Positions 7,261 through 63,063 of a stretch of 64,000 nt of DNA are shown here, piece by piece. The position numbers were made by a program, and so were the translations under genes. Source of the stretch: an uncultured Thermoleophilia bacterium (GTDB taxonomy: Bacteria > Actinomycetota > Thermoleophilia > RBG-16-64-13); NCBI GenBank assembly GCA_963749535.1, contig CAVVNF010000018.1:3877-67876 (forward strand), given 5' to 3'. Below the pieces are notes generated by a model that searched no databases, had not been told where the DNA came from, and saw only the letters and a program-made list of their open reading frames with translations. The first letter of the stretch is position 1, and the number at the start of each line of letters is the position of its first letter.

Positions 7261-7274
7261 CGAAGAAGGATCAC

Positions 7275-8491
7275 ATGGCTGCCAAAACTAACAACCTGCA
7301 AGTGGAACACGTGCCCCTCGACCAATTACGCCCCGACCCCACAAACCCCCGCCATATACCTCAAGCCGAGCTTGAGGCTCTCACCCGAAGCATTTCCGAG
7401 TTCGGACTGGTGGATCCGATCATCGCGAGAGCCGAGGACAAGACGGTGATCGGCGGACACCAGAGATTGCTCGCGGCCAGGAAGCTCGGACTGAAGACAG
7501 TGCCGGTCATCTTCCTCGACATCAGCAAGGAGAAGGCCCGGCTGCTGAACGTAGCCCTGAACAAGATCCGCGGCGACTTCGACCACGAACTGCTCGCCCG
7601 ACTGCTCGCCGACCTGTCGGAGACTCCTGAGCTGGACCTCACCCTGACTGGTTTTGACGACAAGGAGATCAAGCAGCTCCTCAAAGGTCTTGAGGCTCGA
7701 GAGAAGACGAGACCGGCCGGAGACCTTCGACTTAGACGACGCCCTGAGGAAGGCATACGAGAGCCCACGAGCCAAACTTGGCGACTTCTTCCAGCTAGGC
7801 GAGCACCGGGTGCTCTGCGGAGATGCGACAAAGAGCGAGGACATCCAGCGGCTGATGAATGGCTCCACAGCCGCTATGGCCTTCACCGATCCCCCCTACA
7901 ACGTCTCTCTGGGTGACCACGGAGGAAAGCAACAAGGCCAAAGCCGTCGGCGCCTTCAGGAACGACTCCATGGCACCCGAAGCCTGGGAGGCCTTCTGCC
8001 GAGGCTGGGCCGCTCAGCTTCTCGCCGCTGTAAATGGTTGTTCATATGTTTGCATGTCGACCAAGGAGTGGCCCACGGTCTCCCGAATCCTGGCTGAGGC
8101 GGGCGGCCACTGGAGCGACACCATCATCTGGGAGAAGGACCGTTTCGTGCTCGGGCGCTCCGACTACCAACGAGGGTACGAGCCCATCTGGTACGGCTGG
8201 CGGGAAGGAGCCGAGCATCACTTCGCCGGCGGCCGGGACCAGTCGGACATCTGGAAGATCGAGCGGCCTTCGGACTCTCCCCTCCACCCCACCATGAAAC
8301 CTCTGCCCCTGATCGAGCGAGCCATCGAGAACTCCTCGAAGCCAGGAGACGTCGTCCTGGACCTCTTCCTGGGATCAGGATCGACCCTGATCGCCGCGGA
8401 ACGAACCGGCCGCGTCTGCTACGGCATGGAGCTGGACCCACACTATTGTTCCATCGTGATCGCCCGCTGGGAGGCTTTCACGCGGGCATAA
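7275..8491 (+). CDS. ParB-like nuclease domain fused to DNA methyltransferase (DPPY class); two frame breaks
   Basis: ParB N-terminus: LRPDPTNPRHIPQAELEALTRSISEFGLVDPIIAR...GGHQRLLAARKLG. Methylase motif IV AFTDPPYN and motif I VVLDLFLGSGSTLIAAERTGR. Frame changes near 7710 and 7930. Confidence 0.85.
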
Positions 8492-47703: not shown

Positions 47704-47961
47704 CTAAACTTGGAGGAAGTCCATCCTCTTTACATCGACGCCATGCAAGGTTTGAAGCTCGGCATAAAACGCTTCGACCGTGGCTTCGTCCCCAAAGACA
47801 TCAAGAAGTACCAGCCCGCTCGGCGAGCAGCTCGTGGCGTCCGCGTCGTGGATACCCAGTCTGGTGCGGATGTTGCAGCCATACTTTGTGAACGTCGCCT
47901 GCACTGACGGCACGTTCTCCGTGCGATGAGTGATATGGACGCCGAAGATGTGGTGTTGCAC
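47704..47961 (-). CDS. TM1266-like small regulator (putative iron-only hydrogenase system regulator family)
   Basis: 85 aa. The pattern FGVHITHRTENVPSVQATFTKYGCNIRTRLGIH...GLVLLDVFGDEATVEAFYAELQTLHGVDVKRM resembles the ACT/NikR-C-like TM1266 family as I recall it. Confidence 0.45.
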   Translation of the reverse strand: MQHHIFGVHITHRTENVPSVQATFTKYGCNIRTRLGIHDADATSCSPSGLVLLDVFGDEATVEAFYAELQTLHGVDVKRMDFLQV

Positions 47962-48147: not shown

Positions 48148-48227
48148 TTTTGTGCGACTTTGCACTTGACTCCTATACCCGCAAAGAGTAATTTGTGAAA
48201 CACGTAACAGTGTTACTCATGTAACGG
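48148..48227. promoter_or_regulatory. three Rex-box-like inverted repeats overlapping a candidate promoter, in the divergent intergenic region
   Basis: Box C is TTTTGTGCGACTTTGCACTT (48148-48167). Candidate promoter is TTGACT (48166-48171), 17 nt, TAATTT (48189-48194). Box A is TTGTGAAACACGTAACAG (48193-48210). Box B is GTGTTACTCATGTAACGG (48210-48227). Compare the Rex consensus TTGTGAA-N4-TTCACAA / TTGTTAA-N4-TTAACAA. Confidence 0.35.
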
Positions 48228-48268: not shown

Positions 48269-49354
48269 GTGGCTCAGGCGGGAAAGCCAATAGTGTCTCG
48301 AAAGACGGTGGGGAGGCTCAGCCTCTACCGTCGGCTCCTGGATCTCCTCCGAGAGTCCGGGACCATGCATGTGTATTCCCATCAGCTGGCGCATCTGGCC
48401 GGGGTGAGCGCGGCCCAGGTACGGCGAGACTTCATGACCATCGGCTACTCGGGCAGCCCGAACCGCGGCTATGAGGTCAAGACGTGTCTCGAGAGCATCG
48501 GAAGCCTGCTCGACGGATCGGGCTGTCAGGACGTGGCTCTCGTGGGAGTCGGGCGTCTCGGCCGGTCCCTACTGGCCCACTTCTCGAACAAGCAACAGAT
48601 GCTGCGCATCGCCGTCGCCTTCGACACCGACCCAGCCGTCGTCGGCGGATCGTTGGACGGTTGTGAGATTCACGCAGTCGAGACCATCGAGAAAGTCGTG
48701 GACGAAAGAGGGATCCGCATCGGTATCCTCGCCGTGCCTCCGGAGGCAGCGCAGCCGGCGGCAGCCGCGCTGGTACGAGCCGGCGTGAGAAGCATCGTGA
48801 ATTTCGCGGCGGTTCCCCTCCGCGTCCCCGACGATGTCTTCGTGGACTATATGGACATCACGTCCGCCGTCGAGTCCGCGGCATTCTTCGCCCGGGACGA
48901 CGGCGACAAGGATTCGGCCCCTGAGGACGTGCCCGAGACCGAGATGGACCCCATCATCCGCACCATCGATTCGCTTTTGGCGAGGACGAACATGAAGCTC
49001 GAAGAATTGGCGCAAAGGATCGGTGCCCGCGTGCTCGCTCCGGGAGCCCCGGGCGGCACCGAGGTGACCAAGGTCTACGCAGGCGACCGCGTGAGCGACC
49101 TGCTCAACGAGGCATCCAACAAGACCTTGCTTGTGACCAACCTGGCGAACCTGCAGATGGTGCGGGTCGCGGAACTGATGGACGTGCCGGGTATCTGCTT
49201 CGTCGACGGGATCGACCCGGAACCGGACATCATCGAGCTCGCACGGGCCAACAACACGGTGATCCTGGTCTCACCCGTGGGAGTCTTCGAGACCTGCGGC
49301 CTTATCTTCCAGATCCTTTCCGAAAACGGCCAGAAACAGGCGGAGCCGCAATAG
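48269..49354 (+). CDS. rex: redox-sensing repressor Rex fused to a C-terminal DRTGG-like domain (361 aa, intact)
   Basis: Rex region: TVGRLSLYRRLL...YSHQLAHLAGVSAAQVRRDF...VALVGVGRLGRSLL...VNFAAVPL. About 130 extra C-terminal residues follow: GDRVSDLLNEASNKTLLVTNLANLQMVRVAELMDVPGICFVDGIDPEPDIIELARANNTVILVSPVGVFETCG. Confidence 0.85.
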   Translation: MAQAGKPIVSRKTVGRLSLYRRLLDLLRESGTMHVYSHQLAHLAGVSAAQVRRDFMTIGYSGSPNRGYEVKTCLESIGSLLDGSGCQDVALVGVGRLGRSLLAHFSNKQQMLRIAVAFDTDPAVVGGSLDGCEIHAVETIEKVVDERGIRIGILAVPPEAAQPAAAALVRAGVRSIVNFAAVPLRVPDDVFVDYMDITSAVESAAFFARDDGDKDSAPEDVPETEMDPIIRTIDSLLARTNMKLEELAQRIGARVLAPGAPGGTEVTKVYAGDRVSDLLNEASNKTLLVTNLANLQMVRVAELMDVPGICFVDGIDPEPDIIELARANNTVILVSPVGVFETCGLIFQILSENGQKQAEPQ

Positions 49355-49361
49355 CCAAGCC

Positions 49362-51375
49362 ATGGAATTCGTCTCCTACGACATAAAGAGCAGTGACTTC
49401 GACGCGGCGGGAGCGGCTTCCAGCGCCATCAAGGAGCAGCTGAAGCGTATCGGGGCGGACGCGGAGAGCATCCGGCGCACGATGATCGCAGCGTACGAAG
49501 CGGAGATGAACGTGGTGATCCACGCGCATGGCGGCCGCCTGGAAGCCTCGCTTTCGGACGACCGCCATCGACGTCGATGTGATCGATGAGGGGCCGGGCA
49601 TCCCCGACATCGAGCTGGCCATGAAGGAAGGTTTCTCCACGGCCAGCTCCGAGGCGCGGGCCCTCGGCTTCGGGGCGGGCCTGGGTCTGCCGAACATCAA
49701 GAAGAACAGCGACCGCCTGAGGGTGACCTCCCGCGTGAGCGAAGGCACCCGGGTGAGCTTCACCGTCTACCTCAAGCGAGAATCGGCGTGTGCGCCGAGC
49801 ATCGTCTCCCTCGCTGCCTCGACGGAAGACTGCCGCGATTGCCGCCGCTGTCTGGTGGCCTGTCCGACACATGCGGTGCGGGTGAGGAACGGCCGGCCCT
49901 CTGTCCTGGAGCACCTATGCGTGGACTGCACGAGCTGTATCGCAGCGTGCTCGTCGAAGGCCCTCACCGTGCGAGACGATGTCTCCTCGTTGGCGGAGCT
50001 GAAGAACATCGGCGAACTGGTCCTGGCGGTGCCTCCCGGGCTCCTTGCCAGTTGCGGAACCGGGCTTTCCCCTGCCCGGGTTCTCCAAGGATTGCGGAGG
50101 CTCGGATTCGCGGACGTCATCACCGTGGCGCCCTTTGAGCGCGCGCTCCGGCGGGCGGTCTTGACTTCGGCCAACGAGAACGCTGGGGACGGCCCGGAAG
50201 CACGGGAACTACCGATCATATCCCCGGCCTGCCCCGCCGTGGTGAACCTCATCGAGCTCAAGTATCCTTCGCTCCTTCCGCAGTTGGCACCTTTTGACTC
50301 CCCCTGGGAGGCCCTGCAGGCATCCCAGGCCGATCGCCGCGTCGCGTACGTCGTGTCCTGCCCAGGCCAACGCTCGGTACTCGTGGCCCACGAACCGGCG
50401 GACAGCGCAGGCAGCTGCGTCGAGCCAGGTGCCGTGTATCTCTCCCCCGGCCTCGTCCGCGATGCGGTCATGGCTCTTCTGGCTGCGGAGGGCCGAGAAC
50501 CCGCGACAGCCGGGCCGGCTGGAAGCGCAAAGGCGAGCGCAGAAGGCGGGGCCGACCACTCGACGGCGGACCTCGGACACGTGCTCACCGTCACCGGCAT
50601 GGAGCACGTCATGGCTGTGCTCGAGCAGATCGAGAACGGGCTGTTGACCGATGCCGAGGTGGTTGAACTCTACGCGTGCGCAGGTGGCTGCTTCGGCTCG
50701 CCGCTCCTACCCCTGGATTTCCACGTGACTGCCCGTCGTTGGGCCCAACAGGAATCGTCAACAGCCTGCTGCGGCGAAATGCCGGCAGCGCTCTCCCGGC
50801 GGCGCCCTTACGCCGCTCGTCCGGGGATACGCCTGGACCCGGACATGGCGCGCGCCATCGAAAAGCTCGGCCGGATGCAAGCGCTCACCCGTTCGCTACC
50901 CGGCAAAGACTGTGGTACGTGCGGCGCCCCCACCTGTGCAGCGCTGGCCGAGGACATCGTGATGGGGCGAGCGACGGCTGAGCTCTGCCCCTACTGCGAT
51001 AACGAGAAGGAGGCGCGGGACATGAGACTGCAGGAGCTCGTCCAGAGCTTTGGATCTCCGGAACTCACCCCCAGCGTGGCCGGCAACAACGACGCCGAGA
51101 TCGCGTACGGCTATGCCTCCGATCTGCTCAGCGACGTGCTCGCCCACGCCCCCGCCGGCGGGGTGCTCGTCACGCTGCAGGTGCACCTCAACGTGATCGC
51201 CGTGGCGAGCCACGCTGGCCTGAGGGCCGTCATCTTCTCGTCCGGCCGCCTCCCCGAGGACGACATCTCTCCCGAGGCGGCGGACGAGGGCCTCTCTCTC
51301 TTCGTGTCACCGGCGGACACCTTCGACATCGTCGGCCGACTGTATCAACTCGGGGTGAAGGGACGGGCTACGTGA
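49362..51375 (+). CDS. multidomain Fe-S sensor-like protein: GHKL (RsbW-like) ATPase + 2x[4Fe-4S] ferredoxin + HydS-like [FeFe]-hydrogenase H-domain homolog + Cx2Cx4Cx16C Fe-S motif + DRTGG-like domain; one frame break near 49560
   Basis: GHKL: EAEMNVVIHA, DEGPGIPD, GFGAGLGLPNI. Ferredoxin: CRDCRRCLVACP and CVDCTSCIAACS. H-domain-like motifs: ISPACPAVVN (L1-like, relay Cys replaced by Ala), VVSCPGQ (L2-like), ELYACAGGCFGSP (L3-like). Fe-S motif: DCGTCGAPTCAALAEDIVMGRATAELCP. DRTGG-like tail: SDLLSDVLAHAPAGGVLVTLQVHLNVIAVASHAGLRAVIFSSGRLP. Confidence 0.8.
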
Positions 51376-51396
51376 GCCGCGCCCCACACGGAAATC

Positions 51397-52178
51397 ATGC
51401 CTGAAGGACGGACGAGATTCCATGGCAGACCGCCTGCGACATGCGCAGCGGACTTGCACATCCACACGGCGCTGTCGCCCTGTGCGGAGCGACGAGATGA
51501 CGCCCCGCGCCATCGTGGAGGCTGCCTTGGCCCGAGGGCTTGACATGATCGCCATCTGTGACCACAACAGCGCGCGCAACGCCGCCGCCGTGCAGGAGGC
51601 GAGCGGGGAACGCCTGGCCGTTCTCGCCGGCATCGAGATAACGAGCGCGGAAGAGGTCCACGTGGTCGGTCTTTTCCCCGACGCGGCCGCGGCCGAGGCG
51701 GCGGGGTCGGAGATCGCTCCGCTCCTTGGCGACGCCGATAGCGGCTACACGGCGTTCTTCGGCGAACAGCAGGTCCTCGACGCCGAGGGCCGCGTACTCG
51801 ACACCGAGACTGCGGCGCTTGCCTTCGCCACTTCGCTCGAGGTGGACGCGGTGGTCGATCTGGTCCACCGGCACGGCGGTCTGGCGGTGGCGGCGCACAT
51901 CGACCGCAGGGCTTTCAGCGTGTTCTCCCAGCTCGGGTTCTTTCCGACCGAATCGGGTTTCGATGCGGTGGAGATCACTCCGTTCACCGGGGATGATTCG
52001 CCGCGAATGGCGGAATTCGCAGGCTCTGGGCCTGCCCATGACTGCAGCTCGTCCGACAGCCACTACCTCGAAGACATCGGGGCTGCCACGACGAGACTCA
52101 CCGTCGAAGTAGCGACCTTCGCCGAGCTGGCCCTGGCTTTCGCCGGCGCCGAAGGGAGGGCGATCGGTCGATGCATGA
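51397..52178 (+). CDS. PHP-domain phosphoesterase; frame break near 51490; 3' end uncertain
   Basis: ADLHIHTALSPCAE then a shift to MTPRAIVEAALARGLDMIAICDHNSARN...GIEITSAEEVHVVGLF...AAHIDR. Confidence 0.7.
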
Positions 52179-52668
52179 TGTGTCCCTCTATCTGCTCGAC
52201 GTCGCTCGAGAACTCAGTGCGCGCAGGCGCGACGCGCATAAACGTTGGTCTTCGCATCGACCACGCTTCCGACGAGTTGGAGCTGACGGTCGATGATGAC
52301 GGACGGGGTTTGAACGTCGACCCCTGAGCGGATCCTCGATCCCTTCTTCACTACGAAAGAAGGCAAGAAGACGGGACTTGGACTAAGCCTCCTGAGAGCG
52401 GAGGCCGAAGCAGCCGGAAGGGGGGCTCACCATCGGTCCCTCCCCCACCCTCGGTGGGGCCCGAGTAGATGTCACCATGCGCCTCGGCCACGTGGACAGA
52501 CCGCCCCTCGGCGATCTGGCCACGACTCTTGTGGTCACGGCGGTGACGAACCTAGATGTCTTGTTCACTATCAGCCTCGAGGGCGATGAGTTCGGGCAAC
52601 CACTCATCGAGGCACCGCTCACCGAAGCGACCGAACTTCTCCTGCACTGCGCGGAGCGGCTCGCATGA
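52171..52668 (+). CDS. stand-alone histidine-kinase-like (GHKL) ATPase domain protein; about 3 frame breaks
   Basis: MHDVSLYLLDV.LENSVRAGATRINVGL...LELTVDDDGRGLNVDP.RILDPFFTTKEGKKTGLGLSLLRAEAEAAG (N, G1 and G2 boxes). No DHp/His box. Confidence 0.65.
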
Positions 52669-52759
52669 GGCAGCGGCAGCCCTTACCAAGAGCGAAACAG
52701 TCGAAGCGCAGCCCAGGCCCGGGGACGCGCATGTTCAGGTCGGCCAAGGAGGCAACGGC

Positions 52760-53323
52760 ATGACGGCGGAGGCAGAGAATCGGGACGTAAAGTGCACGTG
52801 CTGCGAGGAAGCCTCGGAGGAGGAACTTCTCGCACGGCTCGACGACGTCATCGCCGGTACAAGGAAAAGCCAGGAGCTCTGATCCCGGTGCTGCAGCTCG
52901 CCCAGGGCATCTTCGGGTACCTGCCCGAGGTGGCTCTCAAGCAGGTCGCGACGCGAGCATGCGCAAGCCCTACAGCGAAGTGGCCGGCGTGGTGGGCTTC
53001 TACTCGTTCTTCACCACCGTCCCGCGCGGCAAGCAACCTCATCCGCGTCTGCCTGGGCACCGCCTGCTACGTGCGCGGCGGCATGAACGTGCTCGAGTCG
53101 CTCAAGAAGGAGCTGGGCATCGACGTCGGCGAGCACCACGGAGGACCGCGAGTTCTCGCTCGAGGTCGGCTCGCTGCTTCGGCGCCTGCGGCCTCGCCCC
53201 GGTGATCACGGTCGACGACGACGTCCACCACCGCGTCAAGCCGAAGCGCGGATCCGCGAGATCCTCGCCCAGTACGCACGCAGGAAGCCTTGGAAGCTGC
53301 CGTTGCGTGAGAGGAGCGCCTGA
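52760..53323 (+). CDS. hydC: HydC / NuoE-like [2Fe-2S] subunit of a multimeric [FeFe]-hydrogenase; about 3 frame breaks
   Basis: ATG behind AAGGAGG. Motifs KPGALIPVLQLAQGIFGYLP, IRVCLGTACYVRGG, GRCFGACGLAPV (assembled across frames). Stop overlaps the next ATG (TGATG). Confidence 0.85.
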
Positions 53324-53700
53324 TGGCCGACAAGATCAAGAGTGCCGCCGACCTGCTCGCCCTGGCCCAGAAGGCCAAGGCGGACGTCGACCTGCGCTCG
53401 GGCGCCAAGGAGATCACAGGTGACCGTGCACATGGGCACCTGCGGCATCGCCGCCGGCGCCCGCGACGTGGTGGCCGCTTTCCTGCTCCGAGCTGGCCGA
53501 GGCCAGGGCTCGACAACGTGACCGTCGCGCCAATCCGGCTGCGCCGGCCTCTGCGAGAAGGAGCCCATGGTGACCGTCACGTGACGCCGACGGCGCCGTG
53601 TACCACTACGGGCTGCTCGAGACGGAGCAAGGTCCACAAGATCGTCGAGGAACATCTGGTGGGCGGGGTCCCGGTGGACGCCTACCTCATCAAGCATCGT
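53323..53700 (+). CDS. small thioredoxin-like [2Fe-2S] ferredoxin (HndB-like); frame breaks, 3' end approximate
   Basis: MADKIKSAADLLALAQKAK...VTVHMGTCGIAAGARDVVAAF ... GCAGLCEKEPMVTV ... VHKIVEEHLVGGVPVDAYL. Confidence 0.6.
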
Positions 53701-53737
53701 AGCCGTCGATGTGGATCAGAGATCGAAGGAACCAGAT

Positions 53738-56700
53738 ATGAACGAAATCAAGAACCATGTTCTGATCTGCACAGGCGGCGGCTGCATCGCCTCCGGCGCT
53801 CTCGCGGTGAGCGCCGCCTTCACCAAGGAGCTGGAGGACCAGGGCCTCGCCGGGGAAGTCGCGGTCATCGAGACCGGCTGCCTCGGCCCGTGCGCGGTGG
53901 GCCCGGTGGCCCTCGTCTACCCCGACGGCGTCTTCTACCAGAACATCAAGGTCGAGGACGTGCACGAGATCGTGGAGGAGCACCTGCTCAAGGGCCGCGT
54001 GGTCGAGCGCCTCGTGAGCCACGCCCCAGGCACCGACAAGACCTTCGCCGAGATGCAGCGACGTGGAGTTCTTCAACCGCCAGGTGAAGATCGTGCTGCG
54101 CAACTCGGGCATCATCGACCCGCTCAAGGTCGAAGAGTACATCGCCCGCGAGGGCTACCAGGCGCTGGCCAAAGTCCTCACCGAGATGACCCCCGACCAG
54201 GTGGTCGAGCGAAGTGCTTCGCAGCGGCCTGCGCGGCCGCGGCGGCGCCGGCTTCCCCACCGGCCTCAAGTGGAAATTCGCCCGGCAGACCGAGTCCGAC
54301 GTCAAGTACATCCTCTGCAACGCCGACGAAGGCGACCCGGGCGCCTTCATGGACCGCTCGGTGCTGGAAGGCGACCCGCATAGCCTCATCGAGGGCATGG
54401 CCATCGGCGCCTACGCGATCGGCGCGCACGAGGGCTTCGTCTACCTGCGCGCCGAGTACCCGCTGGCCGTGGAGCGCCTCCAGTACGCCATCGACCAGGC
54501 GCGCGACTTCGGCCTGCTCGGCAAAGACATCATGGGCAGCGGCTTCGACTTCGACCTGGAGATCCGCATGGGCTCCGGCGCCTTCGTCTGCGGCGAGGAG
54601 ACGGCCCTCATGAGCTCCATCGAGGGTGGCCGCGGCGAGCCCCGGCCCCGCCCGCCGTTCCCGGCGGTCAAGGGTCTCTGGGACAAGCCCAGCGTGCTCA
54701 ACAACGTCGAGACCTTCGCCAACATCGCCCCGATCATCCTCAAAGGCGCGGAGTGGTTCGCCAGCACCGGCACCGAGAAGAGCAAGGGCACCAAGGTCTT
54801 CGCCCTCGGCGGCGCCATCCAGCACGCCGGCCTGGTCGAGGTGCCCATCGGCATGCAGCTGGGCGAGATCATCTACGAGATCGGCGGCGGCGTCCCCGGC
54901 GACAAGGCGTTCAAGGCCGTGCAGCTCGGCGGCCCTTCCGGCGGCTGCATCCCCAAGCAGCACCTCAACGTGCCCGTCGACTACGAATCGCTGCAGGAGC
55001 TCGGCGCCATCATGGGCTCCGGCGGCTTCATCGTCATGGACGACGACACCTGCATGGTGGACATCGCCCGCTACTTCCTCGACTTCATCCAGGACGAGAG
55101 CTGCGGCAAGTGCCCGCCCTGCCGGGTCGGCACCAAGCGCATGCTCGAGATCGTCACCCGCATCTGCAACGGCGAGGGCGAAGAAGGCGACATCGAGAAG
55201 CTCATCGACCTCGGCAAGACCATCCAGGACACCGCGCTGTGCGGCCTCGGCCAGACGGCGGCCAACCCGGTGCTGTCGCACCATCCGCCACTTCCGCCAC
55301 GAGTACGAGGCCCACATCCGCGACCACTACTGCGAGGCCGGCGTCTGCTCGACCATGTTCAGCGCTCGCTGCTCCAACGCCTGCCCGGCGAGCGTGAACG
55401 TCCCCGGCTTCGTGAGCCTCATCGGCGAGAAGCGCTTCGACGAGGCCTTGACGCTGCACCGCGAGCGCAACCCGCTGGCCAGCATCTGCGGCCGCGTGTG
55501 CTTCCACCCCTGCGAGAGCAAGTGCCAGCGCGCCGCCCTCGACGACGCCGTCGCCATCCGCGGCGCTCAAGCGCTTCATGACCGAGCAGGAGAACGACGC
55601 CGCAACTGCCGAAAGTCCTGGAAAACGCCGAGAACGCCACGCGCAAGATCGCCGTGATCGGCAGCGGGCCGGCCGGCCTCTCCTGCGCCTACTTCCTCGC
55701 CCGTCTGGGCTACAAGCCCACCATGTTCGAGAAAGAGGCCAGCCCCGGCGGCATGCTCGTGCAGGCGATCCCGGCCTACCGCCTGCCGCGGGAGGAGCTC
55801 GGCCGCGAGATCAGCATGATCGAAAGCATGGGCGTCACGATCAAGACCGGCAAGGCGCTCGGCCGCGACTTCACCCTGCACAGCTGAAAGACCAGGGCTA
55901 CGAGGCAGTGTTCCTGGGCGTGGGCGCCCCGCAGGGCGTCGAGCCTCGGCCTGCCCGGCGAGGATGGCGAGGGCGGTCAGTCGACGGCTCTCAGCTTCCT
56001 CGCGCAGTACAACGTGCACGGCGACCGCCTGGGTGGGCGAGCAGGTCGCCGTCATCGGCGGCGGCAACTCGGCCATCGACGCGGCCCGCACCGCCCTGCG
56101 CCTCGGCGCCAAGAAGGTCACCATCCTCTACCGCCGCCAGCGCGCGCAGATGCCCGCCTGGGCGAGGAGATCGACGCCGCCGACCTCGAGGGCATCGAGA
56201 TCATGCCGCTGGTCGCGCCCGAAGGAGATCGTCCGCGACGCGGCCGGCAAGGTTACCGGCGTGCTCTGCCAGCAGATGGTGCTGGGCGACTACGACAGGA
56301 GCGGCCGTCGCCGTCCCGTGGCCGGCCGCAATCCCGACTTCATCGTGGCGTGCGACCAGGTCATCGCCGCTATCGGGCAGTCGCTCGACGCAGACAGGCA
56401 TGCTCGGAGGCTCTTCCGCTCGAGATGCGCAACGGCTGGATCAAGACCGATCGGGCCGACCGGCGCCACCAGTCGTCGACTGGGTCTTCGCCGGCGGCGA
56501 CGCCGCGACCGGTCCCGCATCGGTGGTGGAGGCCATCGCCGCCGGCGAGAAGGCCGCGGTCGCGATCGACGAACGGCTGAGCGGTGCCAACCATGCGTTC
56601 TGGCGCCGCGACGTGGAGGTCGACTGCTACTTCGATCCCGACGCCGATCCCTGCAATACCCCGAGCGGCGGTCGTCGGCTGTGTCGACCCCAGCGTGCGG

Positions 56701-56822
56701 ACCTGCAGCTTCGACGAGGTCGAGCTGCCCTGGGATATGGATGTCGCGCTGGCAGAGGCCAAGCGTGCCTGCGTTGCGACTACGGCAAGGTCCCGGCCCT
56801 CGCTGAGACCAAGGAGATATGA
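53738..56822 (+). CDS. hydB: HydB/NuoF-like flavoprotein subunit fused to a GltD/NfnB-like NAD(P)H oxidoreductase domain; at least 12 frame breaks
   Basis: N-terminal Trx-like [2Fe-2S]: [15 protein letters not shown]...[10 protein letters not shown]. NuoF core: [37 protein letters not shown] continuous ORF piece runs across the junction: [82 protein letters not shown]. GltD-like motifs follow: [67 protein letters not shown]. Confidence 0.85.
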
Positions 56823-56823
56823 G

Positions 56824-58609
56824 ATGCCTGCCCTGACTATTGACGACATCAAGGTCGAGGTGCCCGAAGGCACGACCTTGCTCGACGCCTGCCGCCAGGT
56901 GGGCGCCAGGGTCCCCACTCTGTGCTACCTGGAAGGCGTGCAGTGCCATCGGCGCCTGCCGGGTGTGCCTGGTGGAGGTGGAAGGCGCGCGCGACGCTGG
57001 TCGCCTCCTGCGCTCAACCCGCCACCGAGGGCATGGTGGTCAAGACCAATTCGCCTCGCGTGCGCAAGGGCCGGCAGACCGTGGTCGAGCTGCTCCTGTC
57101 CGAGCACGACGGCGATTGCCAGACCTGCGACCGCAACGGCGACTGCGAGCTGCGCCAGCTTGCCTACGACCTGGGCATCGACGAGATCACGCTACGAGGG
57201 CGAGCGGACCCGCAAGATCGTCGACAGCTCCACCCCGGCCCTCGTCCGCGACACCGGCAAGTGCATCATGTGCCGGCGGTGCGTCACGGTCTGCAACGAG
57301 ATGCAGGGCGTGGGCGCCCTCTTCCCGCAGGATCGCGGCTTTGCCACGGTAATCGGCCCCGCGTTCGCCAGCAACCTCAGCGACGTGGTGTGCGTGCAGT
57401 GCGGCCAGTGCGCGGCCGTCTGCCCCGTCGGCGCGATCACCGAGAACAGCGCGATCGACCAGGTCTGGGCCGCCCTCGACGACCCCGACCAAGCACGTGA
57501 TCGTGCAGACCGCGCCCGGCCATCCGCGGCGCTCTGGGCGAGGAGTTCGGCTACGAGCCCGGCACGCTGGTCACCGGCAAGATGGTCGTCAGCCCTGCGC
57601 CGGCTCGGCTTCGACGCGGTGTTCGACACCAACTTCACCGCCGACCTCACCATCATGGAGGAGGGCACCGAGCTGCTGACCCGCCTGAAGAAGGCCCTGG
57701 TCGACGGCCAGACCGGTGGCGCTGCCCATGTTCACGAGCTGCTCTCCCGGCTGGATCAACTACATGGAGCACTTCAACCCGGACATGCTCGCCAACCTGT
57801 CCACCTGCAAGTCGCCCGCAGCAGATGTTCGGCGCGCTGGCCAAGACCTACTACGCCGAGAAGCTGGGCAAGAAGCCCGAGGACATCGTCGTGGTCTCGG
57901 TCATGCCGTGCACCGCCAAGAAGTTCGAGTGCAGCCGTCCCGAGATGACCGACAGTGGCGTGCAGGACGTCGACATGGTGCTCACGACCCGTGAGCTGGC
58001 GCGCATGATCAAGCAGGCCGGCATCGACTTCGCAGCCTGCCCGACGACAAGATGGACGCGCCGCTGGGCATCTCGCACCGGCGCGGCCGACATCTTCGCC
58101 GTCACCGGCGGCGTGATGGAGGCGGCGCTGCGCACGGCCTACGAGATCGTCACCGGCAAGCCGTTCCCGTTCGAGAACCTGCACGTCAAGCCCATCGCAG
58201 GGCCTCGAAGGCGTGAAGGAGGCCGCGGTGACCGATCGAGGACGACCGTGCCCGAATGGGCGTTCCTCGAGGGCGCCACGCTCAAGGTCGCCGTGGCCCA
58301 CGGCCTGGCGAACGCCCAGAAGGTCATCGACAGGATCCGCAGCGGCGAGGCGCCAGTACCACTTCGTCGAGGTCATGACCTGCCCCGGCGGCTGCATCGG
58401 CGGCGGCGGCCAGCCGCGGCTGACCTCCAACGCCGTGCGCGAGGCCCGCATCCGCGCCATCTACGCCGAGGACGAGGGCCGCGAGCTGCGCAAGTCGCAC
58501 GAGAACCCCGAGGTGCTCAAGCTGTACGAGGAGTTCCTCGGGGCAGCCGCTCGGCGAGAAGTCTCACAAACTGCTGCACACCAAGTACACCGAGAAAGAG
58601 CGCGTCTAG
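56824..58609 (+). CDS. hydA: [FeFe]-hydrogenase catalytic subunit (M3-type with C-terminal small-subunit-like tail); at least 8 frame breaks
   Basis: N-terminal clusters: IGACRVCLVEVEG, LLLSEHDGDCQTCDRNGDCELRQ, GKCIMCRRCVTVC, VCVQCGQCAAVCPVGAI. H-cluster motifs: FTSCSPGW, VMPCTAKKFE, EVMTCPGGCIGGGGQP. Tail: SHENPEVLKLYEEFLG. Confidence 0.9.
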
Positions 58610-58644
58610 TGAGCCAAGGCCCGATGCTATTCGTGGAGACAGCC

Positions 58645-59109
58645 ATGACCGCGGATAGCCCCGCACTCATACTCATCGTCGACGACGACTATGACTTCCT
58701 CGAGATCAACCGCATGATCCTCGAGCGGGCGGGTTATCGCGTTGTCACGGCTTCCGAGCCCGGCCAGGCCCTTGCCAAGATGGAGAACGAGAAGCCCGAC
58801 CTGGTCATCACCGACCTGATGATGACGAGCCTCGACTCAGGCTTCTCGTTCTCCCGCACGATCAAGACCGACCCGCGTTTCGCGGATGTGCCCGTCATCA
58901 TCTCGACGTCGGTGTCGAGCGCCCTTGGCCTCGACTTCCGGCCGCGCTCCGCCGAGGACCTGGCGAAGATGAACGTCGACGCCTACTTCGACAAGCCCCT
59001 CGACGCCCGGCGCCTGCTGGCCAAGGTCGCCGAGCTGCTTGCGGCGCGGCGCGAGGCCGCGGCCGGCCGAGCGTGCGACACGGCCGGCGCCGCACCCGAG
59101 GACAGCTGA
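58645..59109 (+). CDS. single-domain response regulator (receiver only); alternative start 58624
   Basis: LILIVDDDYDFLEI...PDLVITDLMM...VPVIISTS...DAYFDKP. Confidence 0.8.
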   Translation: MTADSPALILIVDDDYDFLEINRMILERAGYRVVTASEPGQALAKMENEKPDLVITDLMMTSLDSGFSFSRTIKTDPRFADVPVIISTSVSSALGLDFRPRSAEDLAKMNVDAYFDKPLDARRLLAKVAELLAARREAAAGRACDTAGAAPEDS

Positions 59110-61140
59110 TGCCGACGGTAGACAATCCGCTCGTCACGACCATCGGCGAGAGGTGCCGCATGTGCTACGCGTGCGTGCGCGAGTGCCCGGCCAAAGCCAT
59201 CCAGATCGTCGACGGCCAGGCCAGCGTCATCCAGTCGCGCTGCATCGGCTGCGGCAACTGCCTCCGGGTCTGCAGCCAGAACGCCAAGCAGGTCCGTCGA
59301 CGACACCGAGCGGGCTTTCGACCTGCTCGGCTCGCGCGACAGCGGCCGCGGCGATCGTGGCCCCGAGCTTCCCGGCCGAGTTCACCGATATCGAGCCGGG
59401 ACGGCTGGTGGCGATGATCCGCGAGCTCGGCTTCGCCGTCCGTGCACGAGGTGGGCTCTCGGCGCCGACCTGGTCGCCCACGAATACGCCAGGCTGCTCG
59501 GAGCGCGAGCCGACAGAGCCGCTACATCGCCACTCCCTGCCCGGCGGTGCAGTCGCTACGTGCGCAAGTATCACCCCGAGCTCACGCAGTTCCTCGGCGC
59601 CGATCGTCTCGCCCATGGTGGCGATGCGCGCGGGCGCTCCGCCACGATCTGGGCCGACGATCTTCAAGTCGTCTTCATCGGCCCCTGCATCGCCAAGAAG
59701 GGCGAGGCCAGCATCGACACGACCCATGTCGAGATCGACGCGGTGCTCACGTTCGCGGAACTGCGCGAGATGTTCGAGCAAGCGGAGATCGTCGCCGGCG
59801 CGGTAGACCCGGACGATGATTTCGATCCTCCGTACGGCGGCGTGGGAGCGGTATTTCCCATCTCGGGCGGACTTCTGCAGACCGCCGGACTTCAACAGGA
59901 CCTGCTGAGCGGTGAGATAGTCGTGGCCGAGGGGCGCGACGAGTTCGTCGATGCGATCAAGGAGTTCGACGTGGCCCACGAGGATGCCCGTCTCTGGACG
60001 TGCTGTCGTGCCAGGGTTGCTTCGCAGGCGTAGGCATGACGACCAAGGATACGAACCTCCAGCGCCGGACCCGCATCAGCAACTATGCCAAGAACCGGAT
60101 CGCCGGATTCAGCGACGAGCAGAGAGCGGACGTCGCCAACGCGTACGAACGTTATGCCGACCTCGACCTTTCCCGCACGTTTCGGCCCGACATCCAGACG
60201 CTGGGCGCGCCTGCGACCGCCGAGGAACTCAAGGAGATCCTGCGAGCGGATGGGCAAGCACAGCGAGGAGGACTTGCTCAACTGCGGGGCCTGCGGCTAC
60301 GACACCTGCCTGGACCATGCGCGTGCGGTTTACGCTGGTGTCGCCGACTCAGAGATGTGCCTTCCCAGCACCATCGAGCAGCTGCGCGCCGCCTACGGCC
60401 AGCTCGAGGAGTCTCACCGCTCGCTGGAGGAAGCCAAGGAAGCTCTCGAGAAATCGGGCAGGCTCGCGAGCATGGGTCAGCTGGCCGCCGGCATCGCCCA
60501 CGAGGTGAACAATCCGCTCGGCATCCTGCTGCTGCATGCCAATCTCGTGCTCGAAGAATGTGAGGAGCAATCCCAGGTCCACGAGGACCTCGAGACCATC
60601 GTCGACCAGGCGAACCGCTGCAAGCGCATCATCTCCGGTCTGCTCAACTTCGCCCGCCAAAGCCGGGTGGTCCGCCAGCCGACCAACCTCGTCGATCTGG
60701 TGCAGAAGGTACTGCACACCACTCCGATCAGCGAGGGCATCGAGGTGCGGGTCGACGACCAGCTGGAAGACCCGGTGGCCGAGATCGACTCGGATCAGAT
60801 AGTCCAGGTGCTTACGAACTTGTTGAGCAACGCCCAGCACGCGATGCCCGAGGGCGGCAGCATCGTGGTCGGATTGAGCGACAAGCCGGAAGAGGTCATC
60901 ATCCAGGTCACCGACAGCGGCAGCGGGATCCCGGACGAGAACATGGCGAAGCTGTTCGACCCGTTCTTCACCACCAAGCAGGTGGGCATGGGCACCGGCC
61001 TGGGGCTGGCCGTGACCCACGGCATCGTCAAGATGCACCGCGGCCAGATCACGGTCCAATCCAACCAGGATCCGGAAAAGGGCCCGACCGGCACCACATT
61101 CACGGTCAGCTTGCCGCGTTACGAGGAGCGCCCGGCCTAA
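59109..61140 (+). CDS. sensor histidine kinase whose input is ferredoxin + HydS-like H-domain homolog + Cx2Cx4Cx16C motif; at least 5 frame breaks in the N-terminal half
   Basis: Ferredoxin: CRMCYACVRECP and CIGCGNCLRVCS. H-domain-like motifs: IATPCPAV (L1-like), VVFIGPCIAKKGE (L2-like), DVLSCQGCFAG (L3-like). Fe-S motif: NCGACGYDTCLDHARAVYAGVADSEMCLP. A coiled coil leads straight to the kinase: H box AAGIAHEVNNPL, N box LLSNAQHAM, G1 DSGSGIP, G2 GTGLGLAV. TGATG overlap with the receiver gene. Confidence 0.8.
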
Positions 61141-61162: not shown

Positions 61163-62353
61163 GTGGGATCTCAGGAGCAAGTGGTCAGAGTCGCCATGGT
61201 GGACGACGAGGAGCCGCTCTGCCTGGGCGTGCGCCGCATTCTTGCCAAATACAACGTGCACGTGCCCGATGTCAGTGTCGACGCTTCCTACGATTTCACG
61301 TACTTCACCACCGGGGAGCGCTTCCTGGAAGCGATTGCCGCGGGCGACCAGTTCGACCTCCTCCTCTGGACCTCAAGCTGCCCGGGATGAGTGGGCTGGA
61401 TATCCTGACCGTGCTCAACCATCAGAACCGGCCGATCCTCACCATCATGATCACCGCGTACGCCACCTTCGAGACGGCGGTCCAGGCTACCAAGCTCGGA
61501 GCCTACGACTTCCTGCCCAAACCGTTTTCCCCGGACGAGCTCCGGTACGCGGTCCGCAAAGCCACCGACCAGTTGATCCTCAGCAAGGAGGCCCGGCGGC
61601 TGGCGGAGGAGAAACGTCAGGTTCGCTTCAACTTCATATCCGTCCTGGCCCACGAGCTCAAAGCACCGCTCAATGCCATCGAGGGCTACCTCCGGATCTT
61701 GCAGACCGACGAGCCACCCGAGCGCAAGCAGATGATCGATCGGAGCCTGATCCGGCTGGATGGGATGAAGAAGCTTATCTTCGACCTCCTCGACCTCACG
61801 CGTATCGAGTCCGGCCAGAAGGTGCGTAATTTCGTTCCGGTGGATGTCCGAGCGCTCGCGAAATCGGCGGCGGACCTGTTCTCGGCCGAGGCGGCGGAAC
61901 GGCACATCACGATCGACTTGAAGCCAGAGGGCCCGGTGGAGATGGTGGCGGATCCCAGCGAGATCGAGATCGTCCTCAACAACCTCATATCGAACGCGGT
62001 CAAGTACAACCGAGACGGCGGCAGCGTGACGGTCGAGATCCGTCGGCGACGACGGAACGCTCAAAGTCTCTGTGACCGACACCGGCATCGGCCTGGCTCC
62101 CGAGGAGGCCGCCAAGCTCTTCTCGGAGTTCGTCCGCATCAAGAACGAGGACACCATCAAGGTCATCGGCAGCGGCCTGGGGCTCTCCACCGTCCGCAAG
62201 CTCGCTCAACTTTACGGCGGAGATGCAACGGTCGTCAGTACGAAGGGGTCGGGGAGCACGTTCACCGTGACCTTACACGATACCCTGCCTGGTCTACCGC
62301 CTCCGGCCAAAACGCCGGCAGAGCGCGACGTCGAAGCCGGAACGGTCCGTTAG
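61163..62353 (+). CDS. hybrid receiver-histidine kinase (REC-HisKA-HATPase); two frame breaks
   Basis: Receiver: VAMVDDEEPL...DLLL.DLKLPGMSGLD...FLPKPF. Kinase: H box ISVLAHELKAPLNAI, N box LISNAVKYN, G1 DTGIGL, G2 GSGLGLS. Confidence 0.8.
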
Positions 62354-62382
62354 CAAGCGCGACGATCTTTCCTCCCTATCCG

Positions 62383-63063
62383 CTAGATCTTCTTGAGCAG
62401 TGACTCAACAAGACCATAGACATCTTCTTGCCGCCTGCATCCGCAAAGCCCGGCGGCCGCGGCCAGTCCTTTGTATTCGGCTACCCGCTGCGGCTCATCC
62501 ATCGCCAGCACCGACTGCGGGGTCTGTCCCTTACTTGCCAGCTCAGTGCTGAGCGAAGCGAGGATCCCACTCAGTGCGCCGGTCCCCTCGCTCGGCGCGT
62601 GCGGGTAGACAGTGCTGGTCTTGTCGTACTTCACGAACTCCTTCTTGCCGCCGGCCTCGAAGATGCCTTCCCAACGCTCCGTTTCCGAGTCCAGCGCATA
62701 GGTCTTGACTTCCTCGGCCCCGATTATCACCGCCTCCACCACGTCCCTCGGCGTCCTCTCGACGATGCAGAGCTCCGGGTATTCTCCGCCCACATCCAGG
62801 GACAGCCGGCCTCTGTCCTCGATTCGCTGGATAACGTAATACCTCAACAGCTCAGCGGCGTCTGCGTCCACCCCGAGCACTTCTTGCCAGCCGTCTCTCC
62901 ACCGGAGGAGGAGGTACTGTTTCGCCGCACCCACACTCACCGATGGCGGCACCAGCCCAAGCTCGGCCAATCCAAGCCACAGCCGGCCGTCCACCTTGCC
63001 GAACTCGACTTCCTTGGTGGAGCCATCTTCGTACGCTACGACCAATCGTTTTGGCTGACTCAT
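62383..63063 (-). CDS. hypothetical protein (226 aa), intact
   Basis: ORF only, 4 nt from the upstream HAD-like gene. Confidence 0.45.
   Translation of the reverse strand: MSQPKRLVVAYEDGSTKEVEFGKVDGRLWLGLAELGLVPPSVSVGAAKQYLLLRWRDGWQEVLGVDADAAELLRYYVIQRIEDRGRLSLDVGGEYPELCIVERTPRDVVEAVIIGAEEVKTYALDSETERWEGIFEAGGKKEFVKYDKTSTVYPHAPSEGTGALSGILASLSTELASKGQTPQSVLAMDEPQRVAEYKGLAAAAGLCGCRRQEDVYGLVESLLKKI

Follow-up and report, generated by a model that had tools for sequence, protein, structure and literature searches.

The gene at 49362-51021 of the window (the whole stretch of DNA analysed, 64,000 nucleotides) is composed of four modules: a SpoIIAB/RsbW-type kinase, two ferredoxin-type [4Fe-4S] clusters, a reduced [FeFe]-hydrogenase H-domain and a C-terminal [4Fe-4S] cluster. 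Its product, called kinase-HydS here, is a putative sensor of hydrogen or redox state, and the gene precedes a hydrogenase operon. The explanation that we consider probable as a whole combines this four-module gene with a separate gene for a DRTGG-fold protein (DRTGG2), an apparent join of the two that was most likely made by error, and a partner-switch-like circuit.

Gene Order and Conserved Cassette

The following features were assigned, all on the same strand.

48193..48210, + strand: Rex-operator-like box TTGTGAAACACGTAACAG, about 60 nt 5' of the rex start
48269..49354, + strand: rex, intact gene for the redox-sensing repressor Rex (361 aa), whose C-terminal domain is DRTGG-like (DRTGG1)
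49362..49773, + strand: SpoIIAB/RsbW-type Ser/Thr kinase domain (HATPase_c_2), broken by +1 base at 49559/49560
49822..49962, + strand: two ferredoxin-type [4Fe-4S] motifs, Cys 157/160/163/167 and 186/189/192/196 (Pfam Fer4_9, Fer4_10, Fer4_7)
49975..50772, + strand: reduced [FeFe]-hydrogenase H-domain (Fe_hyd_lg_C) with L1 SPAC290P, L2 VVSC333PGQ and L3 E435-L-Y-A-C439-AGG-C443
about 50488-50580, + strand: variable low-complexity linker inside the H-domain, predicted to be disordered (pLDDT <50)
50896..50994, + strand: C-terminal accessory [4Fe-4S] motif Cx2Cx4Cx16C (C517, C520, C525, C542; Pfam FeS PF04060)
51019..51024, + strand: junction GAC/ATG, two bases (CT) fewer than in relatives, stop codon of kinase-HydS gone (alignment, indel list)
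51022..51375, + strand: DRTGG2, gene of its own for a 117-aa protein of the DRTGG fold, invariant motif ASDLLSDVLA (homologues, AF2 model)
51422..52174, + strand: PHP-domain phosphoesterase, candidate phosphatase of the module (Pfam PHP, PHP_C), N-terminus corrupted by two indels (51446, 51485)
52167..52660, + strand: second small HATPase_c protein (164-177 aa in relatives), window copy split over frames 2, 3 and 1
52792..58608, + strand: HydABC-type [FeFe] hydrogenase structural genes, namely NuoE-like, small ORF, NuoF-GltD fusion and HydA (tblastn with L003 proteins)
58645..61140, + strand: response regulator and second HydS-like sensor fused to HisKA and HATPase_c (context only)

Rex is supported by its NCBIfam score (185.5 bits) and by the Pfam domains Put_DNA-bind_N and CoA_binding, and the orthologue of the relative L001 has the same length of 361 aa. 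The C-terminal domain of Rex scores 20-23 bits with Pfam DRTGG and shares 30% identity with the 117-aa DRTGG2 (E 3e-14). Upstream of rex, the operator-like box is the sole match in the window to TTGTGAANNNNTTCACAA with at most three mismatches. With 0.72 matches expected by chance, one match is weak evidence by itself; the box was retained on the grounds of where it lies and of its conservation, as the relatives L001 and L004 have it at the same place.

Downstream, the PHP protein shares 66% identity with the PHP protein of L003 (tblastn), and the second small HATPase_c protein has a Pfam HATPase_c match in relatives. The structural genes of the hydrogenase are all frameshifted in the window, with several frames per gene (tblastn, L003 queries), and their assignment to a HydABC-type operon is backed by the Pfam families of the orthologues. 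The small ORF of this operon is a gene of 125-134 aa without Pfam family in the relatives. The second sensor, HydS-HisKA-HATPase, spans 59109-61140 and is 25% identical to kinase-HydS.

The gene order DRTGG1-kinase-HydS-DRTGG2-PHP, followed by the HydABC-type hydrogenase operon, is found across phyla. A DRTGG-like ORF lies upstream in 75 of 77 loci, downstream in 70 and on both sides in 68. Clostridia, Bacteroidales and others have a 139-aa kinase gene immediately upstream of HydS; the kinase-HydS gene is this clostridial pair of kinase and M2e-HydS genes merged into one ORF.

Domains and Motifs of Kinase-HydS

The coding sequence is distributed over two ORFs, 49362..49589 and 49528..51375. 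Removal of one base at 49559/49560 yields a single protein reading, and the true product has about 553 aa, ending about 11 residues past the last Cys of Cx2Cx4Cx16C. The fusion of kinase and HydS is unbroken in relatives (P0001-P0120), and L006-L012 and L020 encode it as a single ORF. Intact orthologues in one ORF include two with 93% and 86% identity, besides over 100 other proteins.

An earlier note on this DNA had described an N-terminal RsbW-type GHKL ATPase with N, G1 and G2 boxes, and the repair of the +1 frameshift confirmed it. Residues 14-137 of the repaired protein match Pfam HATPase_c_2 (36.5 bits) and HATPase_c (39.4 bits). The N box (E46, N50), the G1 box (D75, G77, G79) and the G2 box (G102, G104, G106, G108) are invariant across 63 homologues. 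The AF2 model of the domain superimposes on SpoIIAB (1TIL) with a TMt of 0.83 and an rmsd of 2.2 Å. The fold also matches 1L0O and 1TH8, with TMt values of 0.82-0.83 over the three structures. The score with TIGR01925 spIIAB, 45.8 bits, is under the cut-off of 135.

The remaining modules were likewise read correctly as a HydS-like, sensory-type homologue of [FeFe] hydrogenases with a ferredoxin pair and four H-cluster cysteines. The Pfam Fer4 pair is located at residues 154-200, and all eight Cys are invariant in 63 homologues. The H-domain reaches 56.8 bits with Fe_hyd_lg_C (cut-off 22.1), and its top Foldseek matches are [FeFe] hydrogenases (E about 1e-10). In profile alignments, L1, L2 and L3 align with solved [FeFe] hydrogenases, including the four cluster cysteines C290, C333, C439 and C443 in SPACP, VSCPGQ and ACAGGC. 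The loss of the proton-relay Cys and of the L2 Lys is real: the relay position, preceding C290, is Ala (A289), the K358 position is Gln, and the M353 position is Val. The accessory motif of HydS type is exact (C517-x2-C520-x4-C525-x16-C542) and lies within a match to FeS PF04060 at residues 512-544 (45.7 bits). Pfam found no PAS domain in the repaired protein.

Probable Frame Errors and the Separate DRTGG2 Gene

Indels were defined by comparison with two independent close relatives, L001 and L002 (94% and 87% DNA identity). Against both, the window has one additional base at 49559/49560, and this insertion splits the kinase. At 51022, two bases are absent, and the window reads GGGAC--ATGAG where the relatives have GGGACCTATGAG. 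In the relatives, the hydrogenase-like gene stops after EARDL, and a separate 117-aa gene begins in a 4-base ATGA overlap. L001 encodes kinase-HydS at 5279-6931 and DRTGG2 at 6928-7281; DRTGG2 also stands separate in L003 and L004/L005. In the window, the join thus exists only through the two bases absent at 51022: without them, the stop codon in the ATGA overlap is lost.

The earlier note had proposed a five-module protein in which a DRTGG-like domain replaces PAS, and had itself anticipated that this fusion might dissolve into separate genes once the indels were resolved. It does dissolve: the DRTGG part is a gene of its own in the relatives, and the five-module architecture needs two opposite frame errors. 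The same domain order, for which a search of public genomes had been suggested, was absent from the best 120 homologues of either half (120+120), from the top 150 cluster representatives and from 77 genome loci. Of the domain matches expected on the repaired protein, Fe_hyd_lg_C was obtained, and Pfam DRTGG gave no match at E<=0.01 over the full 670-aa sequence. The C-terminal 117 residues are DRTGG-like. The AF2 model of DRTGG2 (pLDDT 89.4) has its best PDB match in 2IOJ ('Pfam DRTGG'; TM 0.78, rmsd 2.2 Å, E 6e-7). The DRTGG Pfam scores of the window copy (16.1 bits) and of the intact L001 orthologue (21.2 bits) are both under the cut-off of 25.2. The best 120 DRTGG2 homologues are all stand-alone proteins of 109-136 aa, many with a precomputed PF07085. 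In the window copy, frameshifts at 51045/51060 and at 51268/51275 form two compensated pairs, and only between the compensating indels does this copy depart from invariant residues.

DRTGG2 shares its fold with DRTGG proteins (PF07085; AF1212 = PDB 2IOJ; the regulatory region of a CBS-pyrophosphatase, 3L2B). Its own invariant ASDLLSDVLA and its fixed pairing with kinase-HydS genes set it apart from them. The link between HydS and DRTGG as such was well observed in the earlier note, the DRTGG gene being a near-universal neighbour. True HydS+DRTGG2 fusions occur in other lineages and exceed the Pfam cut-off (P0187, 28.6 bits; P0210, 26.3 bits). Other natural fusions are Rex+DRTGG1, DRTGG1+kinase (L030) and HATPase+NuoE.

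Indels of 1-2 bases are present in every gene between 49.5 and 61 kb and are biased towards insertions, with about 11 insertions versus 5 deletions specific to the window between 49.5 and 52.4 kb. Breaks downstream of kinase-HydS lie, for instance, at about 52320, 54030 and 54210. The window reaches its highest GC content (67-69%) in this zone. A GC3 frame plot was too noisy for mapping frameshifts over the window, as an intact 725-aa ORF likewise flips phase. Window-specific substitutions in the kinase-HydS gene are distributed 7/4/18 over codon positions 1/2/3, that is, 62% in third positions (18/29). The control lineage L002 has 14/5/31. This similar richness in third-position changes indicates that selection had been acting on the kinase-HydS gene. 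For both the additional base at 49559/49560 and the 2-base gap at 51022, the most likely origin is an error of sequencing or assembly in GC-rich DNA. If the gap is a consensus error, the expected form at 51019-51027 would be GACCTATGA, with GGAGACC at the kinase break.

A genuine single protein of five modules (kinase, 2x[4Fe-4S], H-domain, FeS and DRTGG), with the fused DRTGG standing for PAS, is very unlikely. The window as given does hold one open frame, 49528..51375, that runs through the DRTGG-like part, and the natural HydS-DRTGG fusions of other lineages, which have no kinase, make this type of fusion biologically plausible. However, the five modules only become readable with the second, opposite frameshift (+1 at 49559), and the 2-base gap falls exactly on the ATGA stop/start overlap that two independent relatives have kept. 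The lack of a fused homologue in all the collections searched and the 1-2 base indels throughout the surrounding 11 kb also speak against it. Real indels would instead mean that the hydrogenase and sensor cluster at 49.5-61 kb is decaying into pseudogenes and that the protein is not made. This reading is ranked second, behind sequencing or assembly error, and is improbable. It is in line with at least about 13 frame changes affecting every gene from kinase-HydS to the second sensor, with the position of the indels outside homopolymers, and with the intact frames of rex and the ABC-transporter genes upstream of rex; about 4.7 kb upstream (44.8-49.5 kb, aligned to L001) are free of uncompensated frameshifts. 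Natural gene decay is deletion-biased and produces mixed indel sizes. In contrast, the indels here are limited to 1-2 bases, mostly insertions, several are compensated within 7-40 bases, and they coincide with the GC-rich zone. The substitution pattern, resembling that of the intact control lineage, also argues against decay. With error as the preferred reading, the kinase-HydS locus illustrates that a false 'novel architecture' can arise from small indels of a draft assembly.

Relation to Group D, Group C and SpoIIAB/RsbW

Judged by sequence, kinase-HydS is nearest to the putative sensory hydrogenases of Group D (M2e), which include TamHydS of Thermoanaerobacter mathranii, Cthe_0335, TTE0887 and Athe_1292. 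The comparison with TamHydS used residue numbers and motifs stated in papers together with unfused M2e-type homologues, not a direct alignment. The unfused M2e-type proteins are the best non-fused relatives of the H-domain core (30-38% identity, E 1e-37 to 1e-49), and solved group A enzymes are more distant (E about 1e-15). Named unfused relatives carry generic names only, for example a 'Fe-Fe hydrogenase large subunit C-terminal domain' protein of Natronincola, with no named model protein among them. The earlier note knew of no characterised protein with the five-module architecture. A PAS-less architecture with an adjacent kinase was already known as Group D/M2e, and TamHydS has been characterised in vitro (PMC8163306; PMC3561251). 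For the kinase-fused clade, no characterised member was found in the literature.

Kinase-HydS shares with Group D the two N-terminal [4Fe-4S] clusters, the four cluster cysteines, the C-terminal Cx2Cx4Cx16C and the lack of PAS. The accessory motif is common to TmHydS and TamHydS (PMC8163306). Both kinase-HydS and Group D have Ala at the position of C299 (CpI) and miss the group A proton path; the relay Cys is mostly Ala in Group D, A137 in TamHydS (PMC10407848). The L3 Glu (E289, TamHydS numbering) is kept. The genomic setting is also shared, with a trimeric group A hydrogenase of the HydABC type downstream of the gene, a GHKL kinase next to it and DRTGG genes on both sides. Group D/M2e genes have been described upstream of bifurcating hydrogenases and near kinases (PMC3561251).

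Unlike in Group D, where the kinase is normally a separate upstream gene of 139 aa, the kinase is fused to the N-terminus. V331 and S332 occupy the positions of M353 and P354 (CpI), whereas the canonical M2e-type sequence is (S/T)PC; the Ser/Thr at the M353 position is well conserved in M2e (PMC8163306). The GGE segment with E252 is gone and a variable linker, predicted to be disordered, is found instead. E252 is a Group-D-specific residue of the proton path, highly conserved and required for activity (PMC10407848). Between L1 and L2, kinase-HydS has about 12 residues fewer. Group D proteins bind an H-cluster and have a slow H2 turnover.

Group C (M2f) HydS proteins, represented by TmHydS of Thermotoga maritima, R. 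albus HydS and T. saccharolyticum HfsB, have in common with kinase-HydS the ferredoxin pair, the accessory cluster, a sensory-type H-domain without relay Cys and the location beside a bifurcating hydrogenase (PMC8163306). The output module differs, being an N-terminal SpoIIAB-type kinase instead of a C-terminal PAS. Membership in Group C was ruled out by the missing PAS domain and the lower similarity (25%) to the HydS-HK sensor of the window. With SpoIIAB/RsbW, the kinase shares the fold, the ATP-binding boxes, the small size without HisKA and an adjoining candidate phosphatase gene. Unlike that system, the phosphatase candidate is of the PHP type, not PP2C, and the conserved neighbours are DRTGG-fold proteins, with no STAS antagonist or sigma factor nearby. 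A STAS-domain antagonist and a sigma factor are the usual targets of SpoIIAB/RsbW kinases; neither was present in the cassettes of L001, L003, L004 and L022.

The Metal Site of the Reduced H-Domain

The W..GGE(S) segment is present in 6 of 48 members of the kinase-fused clade versus 39 of 46 canonical M2e-type sequences. The L1-L2 spacing has a median of 43 residues in the clade versus 55 in canonical M2e-type proteins, and the L2-L3 spacing is variable (75-130 versus 96-124). Without the GGE (E252) segment, binding of a diiron site is uncertain. The clade, which also lacks the Ser/Thr at M353, may have no diiron site and no H2 sensing at all.

We regard it as possible, though doubtful, that the H-domain of the clade holds only the [4Fe-4S] cubane and no diiron subcluster, like eukaryotic proteins of the Nar1/CIAO3 type, and senses the redox state of the ferredoxin pool, O2 or the Fe-S status rather than H2. 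The missing W..GGE(S), which corresponds to GGVMEAA of group A and contains E252 of TamHydS (PMC10407848), points in this direction, as do the shorter L1-L2 and variable L2-L3 spacings. The stretch that replaces the segment is unconserved and predicted to be disordered. Fe_hyd_lg_C matches in two pieces with 56.8 bits, compared to 105-114 bits over the full length in canonical M2e, and Val and Gln replace M353 and K358. On the other hand, all four cluster cysteines are invariant, including the bridging C443. The pocket-lining positions P291, A292, P334, Q336, R337, S338, Y437, G441, G442 and F444 are invariant or nearly so in the clade, a pattern that speaks for a specific ligand site. Maturases are expected in these genomes, as they encode a true HydA. 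TamHydS binds an H-cluster despite many changes in its pocket (PMC8163306).

A Proposed Partner-Switch-Like Circuit

In the proposed circuit, the metal centre of the H-domain would report H2 or the ferredoxin pool's redox state and thereby modulate the fused kinase. The kinase would bind and/or phosphorylate DRTGG-fold proteins, both the free DRTGG2 and the DRTGG1 fused to Rex, with the Ser residues of the invariant ASDLLSDVLA, S33 and S37, as candidate phosphorylation sites. The PHP protein may reverse the modification. Such a circuit would add a H2 or redox input to the NADH-sensing Rex, which would control the downstream HydABC-type operon. In the open-access literature searched, phosphorylation of DRTGG domains is not documented, and nothing relevant was found on DRTGG with hydrogenase, on anti-sigma or PHP proteins with bifurcating hydrogenase, or on partner-switching with HydS. 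In a 2026 study of TamHydS, H2 did not reduce the C-terminal cluster (PMC13104023), and this was counted against the proposed signal route.

Our suggestion for the kinase-fused clade is tentative: it might be a distinct class of hydrogenase-derived sensors, in which an H-domain without the GGE/GGVMEAA wall directly gates a SpoIIAB-type kinase with DRTGG-fold partners, including Rex-DRTGG. Group D sensory hydrogenases have been studied by spectroscopy, and the natural fusions (kinase+HydS, HydS+DRTGG, DRTGG+kinase, DRTGG+Rex) bear on their signalling. The 2026 TamHydS paper called the identification of interaction partners critical (PMC13104023). The fusions and the near-universal order of the cassette nominate such partners for Group D HydS. 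If the suggestion is true, it would name the partners long sought for signalling by Group D HydS, and kinase, DRTGG proteins and PHP phosphatase would form a new type of partner-switching circuit that merges H2 or ferredoxin signals with the NADH signal at one repressor.

Kinase-HydS and DRTGG2 are encoded by two genes

The gene was read in two frames:
49362..49589, + strand, ORF of 75 aa, overlapping 49528..51375 in a different frame
49528..51375, + strand, ORF of 615 aa, overlapping 49362..49589 in a different frame

In a three-frame reading, the N-terminal piece ends with '...RLEASLSDD' and the second frame carries on with '(T)AIDVDVIDEGPGIPD...'. Removal of one base at 49559/49560 yields an uninterrupted 670-aa sequence. 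The GHKL boxes (E46/N50, D75-G77-G79, G102-G104-G106-G108), the H-cluster motifs (SPAC290P, VVSC333PGQ, AC439AGGC443) and the Cx2Cx4Cx16C motif (C517-x2-C520-x4-C525-x16-C542) described in an earlier note were all found in it. Pfam models matched HATPase_c_2/HATPase_c at residues 14-137, a Fer4 pair at 154-200, Fe_hyd_lg_C in two stretches (56.8 bits, cut-off 22.1) and FeS (PF04060) at 512-544 (45.7 bits). Neither DRTGG nor PAS matched at E<=0.01.

A search of 5.8 billion proteins with the repaired protein gave 875 matches. The best 120 of these 875 are all 527-642 aa long, cover only ~82% of the query and comprise the kinase, Fer4, Fe_hyd_lg_C and FeS modules, then nothing further. The two closest homologues, P0001 (93% identity, 553 aa) and P0002 (86%, 550 aa), end with '...EARDL' where the window has '...EARDMRLQELV...'. 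The NCBI MAG contig encoding P0002 (L001) has the gene order of the window: Rex (361 aa), the 550-aa protein, a separate 117-aa gene, PHP and a small HATPase. The 550-aa gene (5279-6931) and the 117-aa gene (6928-7281) overlap by 4 bases. In a DNA alignment with L001 and an independent ENA contig, L002, the window has one additional base at 49559 (GGAcGACC) and lacks 2 bases at 51022 (GGGAC--ATGAG versus GGGACCTATGAG in both contigs). This loss deletes the stop in the ATGA overlap and brings the downstream gene in frame. Distant relatives (L003, L004/L005; 57-60% identity) likewise have a separate 115-129-aa gene at that place. The 117-aa protein has 956 homologues, the best 120 of which all stand alone (109-136 aa), and none of 77 genome loci has a HydS ORF running >67 residues beyond the Cys motif.

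On these alignments, the five-module protein is best read as an artefact of two indels. The single protein proposed in the earlier note was not borne out, and its domain order was found fused in none of the best 120 homologues of either search or the 77 loci. The kinase-HydS part of that proposal is real; the DRTGG part belongs to the neighbouring gene.

Origin of the frame breaks

Between 49.5 and 52.4 kb, the window-specific indels are all 1-2 bases, with insertions in the majority, and several form compensating pairs 7-40 bases apart. Tblastn with orthologous L003 proteins showed genes up to ~61 kb each split over 2-3 frames (small HATPase, NuoE, NuoF-GltD, HydA, second sensor). The broken stretch (49559-61100) is the GC-richest of the window (0.655-0.686 versus ~0.60-0.64 elsewhere). 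Frames are kept in the ~4.7 kb upstream of 49.5 kb that align to L001, and both rex and the preceding ABC-transporter genes read through without frame breaks.

The concentration of damage, with every gene from ~49.5 to 61 kb broken beside intact upstream genes, would suit a recent decay of the locus. We consider this unlikely. Window-specific substitutions in the kinase-HydS gene number 7/4/18 at codon positions 1/2/3, and the resemblance to the same count in the intact L002 lineage (14/5/31) indicates that purifying selection acted on the window lineage. In the 117-aa gene, the window deviates from conserved residues solely within two short stretches bracketed by +1/-1 shifts (QSFGSPEL versus QALDLxEL; DDISPEAADEG versus DDIISRAVDEG). 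Both patterns argue against long-standing decay. Natural decay is deletion-biased with mixed indel sizes; consensus errors fit the insertion-biased spectrum of 1-2 bases better. The indels are quite probably errors.

Kinase-HydS joins a kinase to a Group-D-like hydrogenase

An AF2 model of P0001 was built from a 63-sequence alignment (pLDDT 77.7). The N-terminal domain can be overlaid on SpoIIAB 1TIL (TMt 0.83, rmsd 2.2 Å) and the remainder matches the [FeFe] hydrogenases CbA5H, DdHydAB and CpI (E ~1e-10 to 1e-8). A profile alignment to solved hydrogenases equated A289/C290 with CpI C299/C300, V331-S332-C333 with M353-P354-C355, Q336 with K358, and E435..C439..C443 with the L3 motif.

An exhaustive HMMER search of 1.84 billion cluster representatives with the core (residues 143-553) gave 2729 matches at E<=1e-3, including 218 at E<=1e-30. 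Among the top 150, 45 were kinase-fused and 61 unfused; the others were fragments, plus a few proteins of different architecture. The unfused relatives (~410-460 aa, 30-38% identity to the core) share with Group D/M2e two N-terminal clusters, Cx2Cx4Cx16C, the absence of PAS, Ala/Ser at C299 and Ser/Thr at M353 (PMC8163306, PMC10407848). Their GGE segment probably represents the E252 site of the putative sensory hydrogenase TamHydS, itself outside the alignment, as suggested by its distance of 37 residues to the L3 Glu and by the GGV counterpart in group A. A pattern search found 591 relatives in genome contigs. Kinase-HydS is a single ORF in Actinomycetota, Thermoleophilia, Brocadiia and Spirochaetota; Clostridia, Bacteroidales, Synergistaceae, Caldatribacterium and other taxa encode the kinase separately (139 aa), directly upstream of HydS (420-470 aa). 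The window gene is therefore the known pair of kinase and M2e-HydS merged in one ORF.

In an alignment of 116 cores, the kinase-fused clade has the motifs (V/I)xSP(A/V)CPAVVNL (L1), VVSCPxQRS (L2) and E(L/P)YACxGGCFGSPL (L3). Unlike Group D, it lacks the W..GGE(S) segment, the equivalent of group A GGVMEAA. TamHydS E252, probably part of this segment, is reported to be strongly conserved across Group D and needed for activity (PMC10407848).

H-domain features of the canonical M2e type and the window's clade
W..GGE motif present: canonical 39/46; window's clade 6/48
L1-L2 spacing, median: canonical 55; window's clade 43
L2-L3 spacing, range: canonical 96-124; window's clade 75-130
Fe_hyd_lg_C score: canonical 105-114 bits, full length; window protein 56.8 bits, two pieces

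The stretch replacing this segment is unconserved in 63 homologues and modelled with pLDDT <50. The loss of the segment could mean that the H-domain no longer binds a diiron subcluster and is a cubane-only redox sensor, a possible but less likely reading. Across the same homologues, the four Cys and the pocket residues beside them show no or almost no variation.

A conserved cassette with DRTGG proteins and Rex

The 117-aa protein (DRTGG2) scored below the cut-off of the Pfam DRTGG model (16.1 bits in the window, 21.2 bits in an orthologue; cut-off 25.2). Its structural model (pLDDT 89.4) best matched AF1212/2IOJ, 'Pfam DRTGG' (TM 0.78, rmsd 2.2 Å), followed by the DRTGG domain of a CBS-pyrophosphatase and an HPr-kinase N-domain. 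By its predicted structure, it is a DRTGG-fold protein. It is paralogous to the C-terminal extension of the upstream Rex (30% identity, E 3e-14).

47704-47961, - strand, 85-aa ORF divergent from rex, CPF_0552 family (95.8 bits, cut-off 85)
48193-48210, Rex-operator-like box TTGTGAAACACGTAACAG, ~60 nt upstream of rex, conserved in L001 and L004
48269-49354, Rex with C-terminal DRTGG-like domain (NCBIfam Rex, 185.5 bits)

A second imperfect palindrome, TTGTGCGACTTTGCAC, lies ~40 nt further upstream of the box. The 85-aa ORF also weakly matched TM1266, 'iron-only hydrogenase system putative regulator' (16.5 bits); at its position, L001, L003 and L004 each have an ORF of 82-85 aa that matches no Pfam family. 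Rex with the DRTGG-like domain (361-365 aa) is also encoded in L001 and L004, and a 300-aa Rex-like ORF in L003 still gave a DRTGG-like match.

According to an HMM of the DRTGG2 subfamily, a DRTGG-like ORF precedes the kinase in 75/77 loci and follows HydS in 70/77; 68/77 have one on both sides. The Thermoanaerobacteraceae locus L022 is unfused: DRTGG1(117)-kinase(139)-HydS(437)-DRTGG2(112)-PHP(235)-NuoE-HATPase-121-aa ORF-NuoF. Fusions join Rex and DRTGG1 (window, L001, L004), DRTGG1 and kinase (L030), kinase and HydS (the window's clade), HATPase and NuoE (L004), and HydS and DRTGG2, with DRTGG above the Pfam cut-off in P0187 (28.6 bits) and P0210 (26.3 bits) and just under it in P0213 (22.9 bits). 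Alternative fusions of this kind in different lineages are a classical argument for joint action of the gene products. The last three proteins (515-563 aa), all cluster representatives from outside the window, are genuine HydS(M2e)-DRTGG fusions without kinase; the fusion faked by the window's indels exists for real in other lineages.

Other genes of the window

24860-27622, intact molybdenum hydroxylase, xanthine dehydrogenase/aldehyde oxidase type, 920 aa
53711-56819, NuoF-like subunit fused to a GltD/NfnB-like NAD(P)H-flavin domain (Fer4_20, Pyr_redox_2)
58645-59028, response regulator preceding the second sensor
59109-61140, second HydS-like sensor (Fer4, Fe_hyd_lg_C, FeS, HisKA, HATPase_c)
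61387-62403, RR-HisKA hybrid following the second sensor

With the NuoF-GltD fusion (1026-1028 aa in L003 and L004), the hydrogenase may have an additional pyridine-nucleotide site. The second sensor, at the opposite operon end, shares ~25% identity with the kinase-HydS core; its frames are broken too. The molybdenum hydroxylase (Fer2_2, Ald_Xan_dh_C, MoCoBD_1, MoCoBD_2) is unconnected with kinase-HydS.

Proposed signalling and significance

The metal centre of the H-domain may relay H2 or the redox state of the ferredoxin pool to the fused SpoIIAB-type kinase, which would bind or phosphorylate the DRTGG proteins. Candidate sites are two Ser in the invariant ASDLLSDVLA motif of the DRTGG2 subfamily. 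PHP-family protein phosphatases exist; by analogy, the PHP protein may be the opposing phosphatase. The state of DRTGG1 on Rex would provide an extra input beside NADH sensing in the control of the hydrogenase operon. Several points count against this mechanism: the cassette encodes neither a STAS partner nor a sigma factor, DRTGG phosphorylation was not found documented in the searchable literature, and H2 does not reduce the C-terminal cluster of TamHydS (PMC13104023).

Group D/M2e proteins without PAS, upstream of bifurcating hydrogenases and near kinases, are already published (PMC3561251; PMC8163306), as is the in vitro characterisation of TamHydS (PMC8163306). Searchable literature yielded no description of the kinase-fused clade, its reduced H-domain or the DRTGG/PHP cassette as a signalling unit. 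Hundreds of these proteins are deposited in public databases with generic labels such as 'ATP-binding protein' and 'anti-sigma regulatory factor/RnfB'. Kinase-HydS is a widespread, uncharacterised sensor-kinase variant, not a new architecture. Together with the cassette, it offers a testable answer to the question of who partners Group D HydS in signalling.
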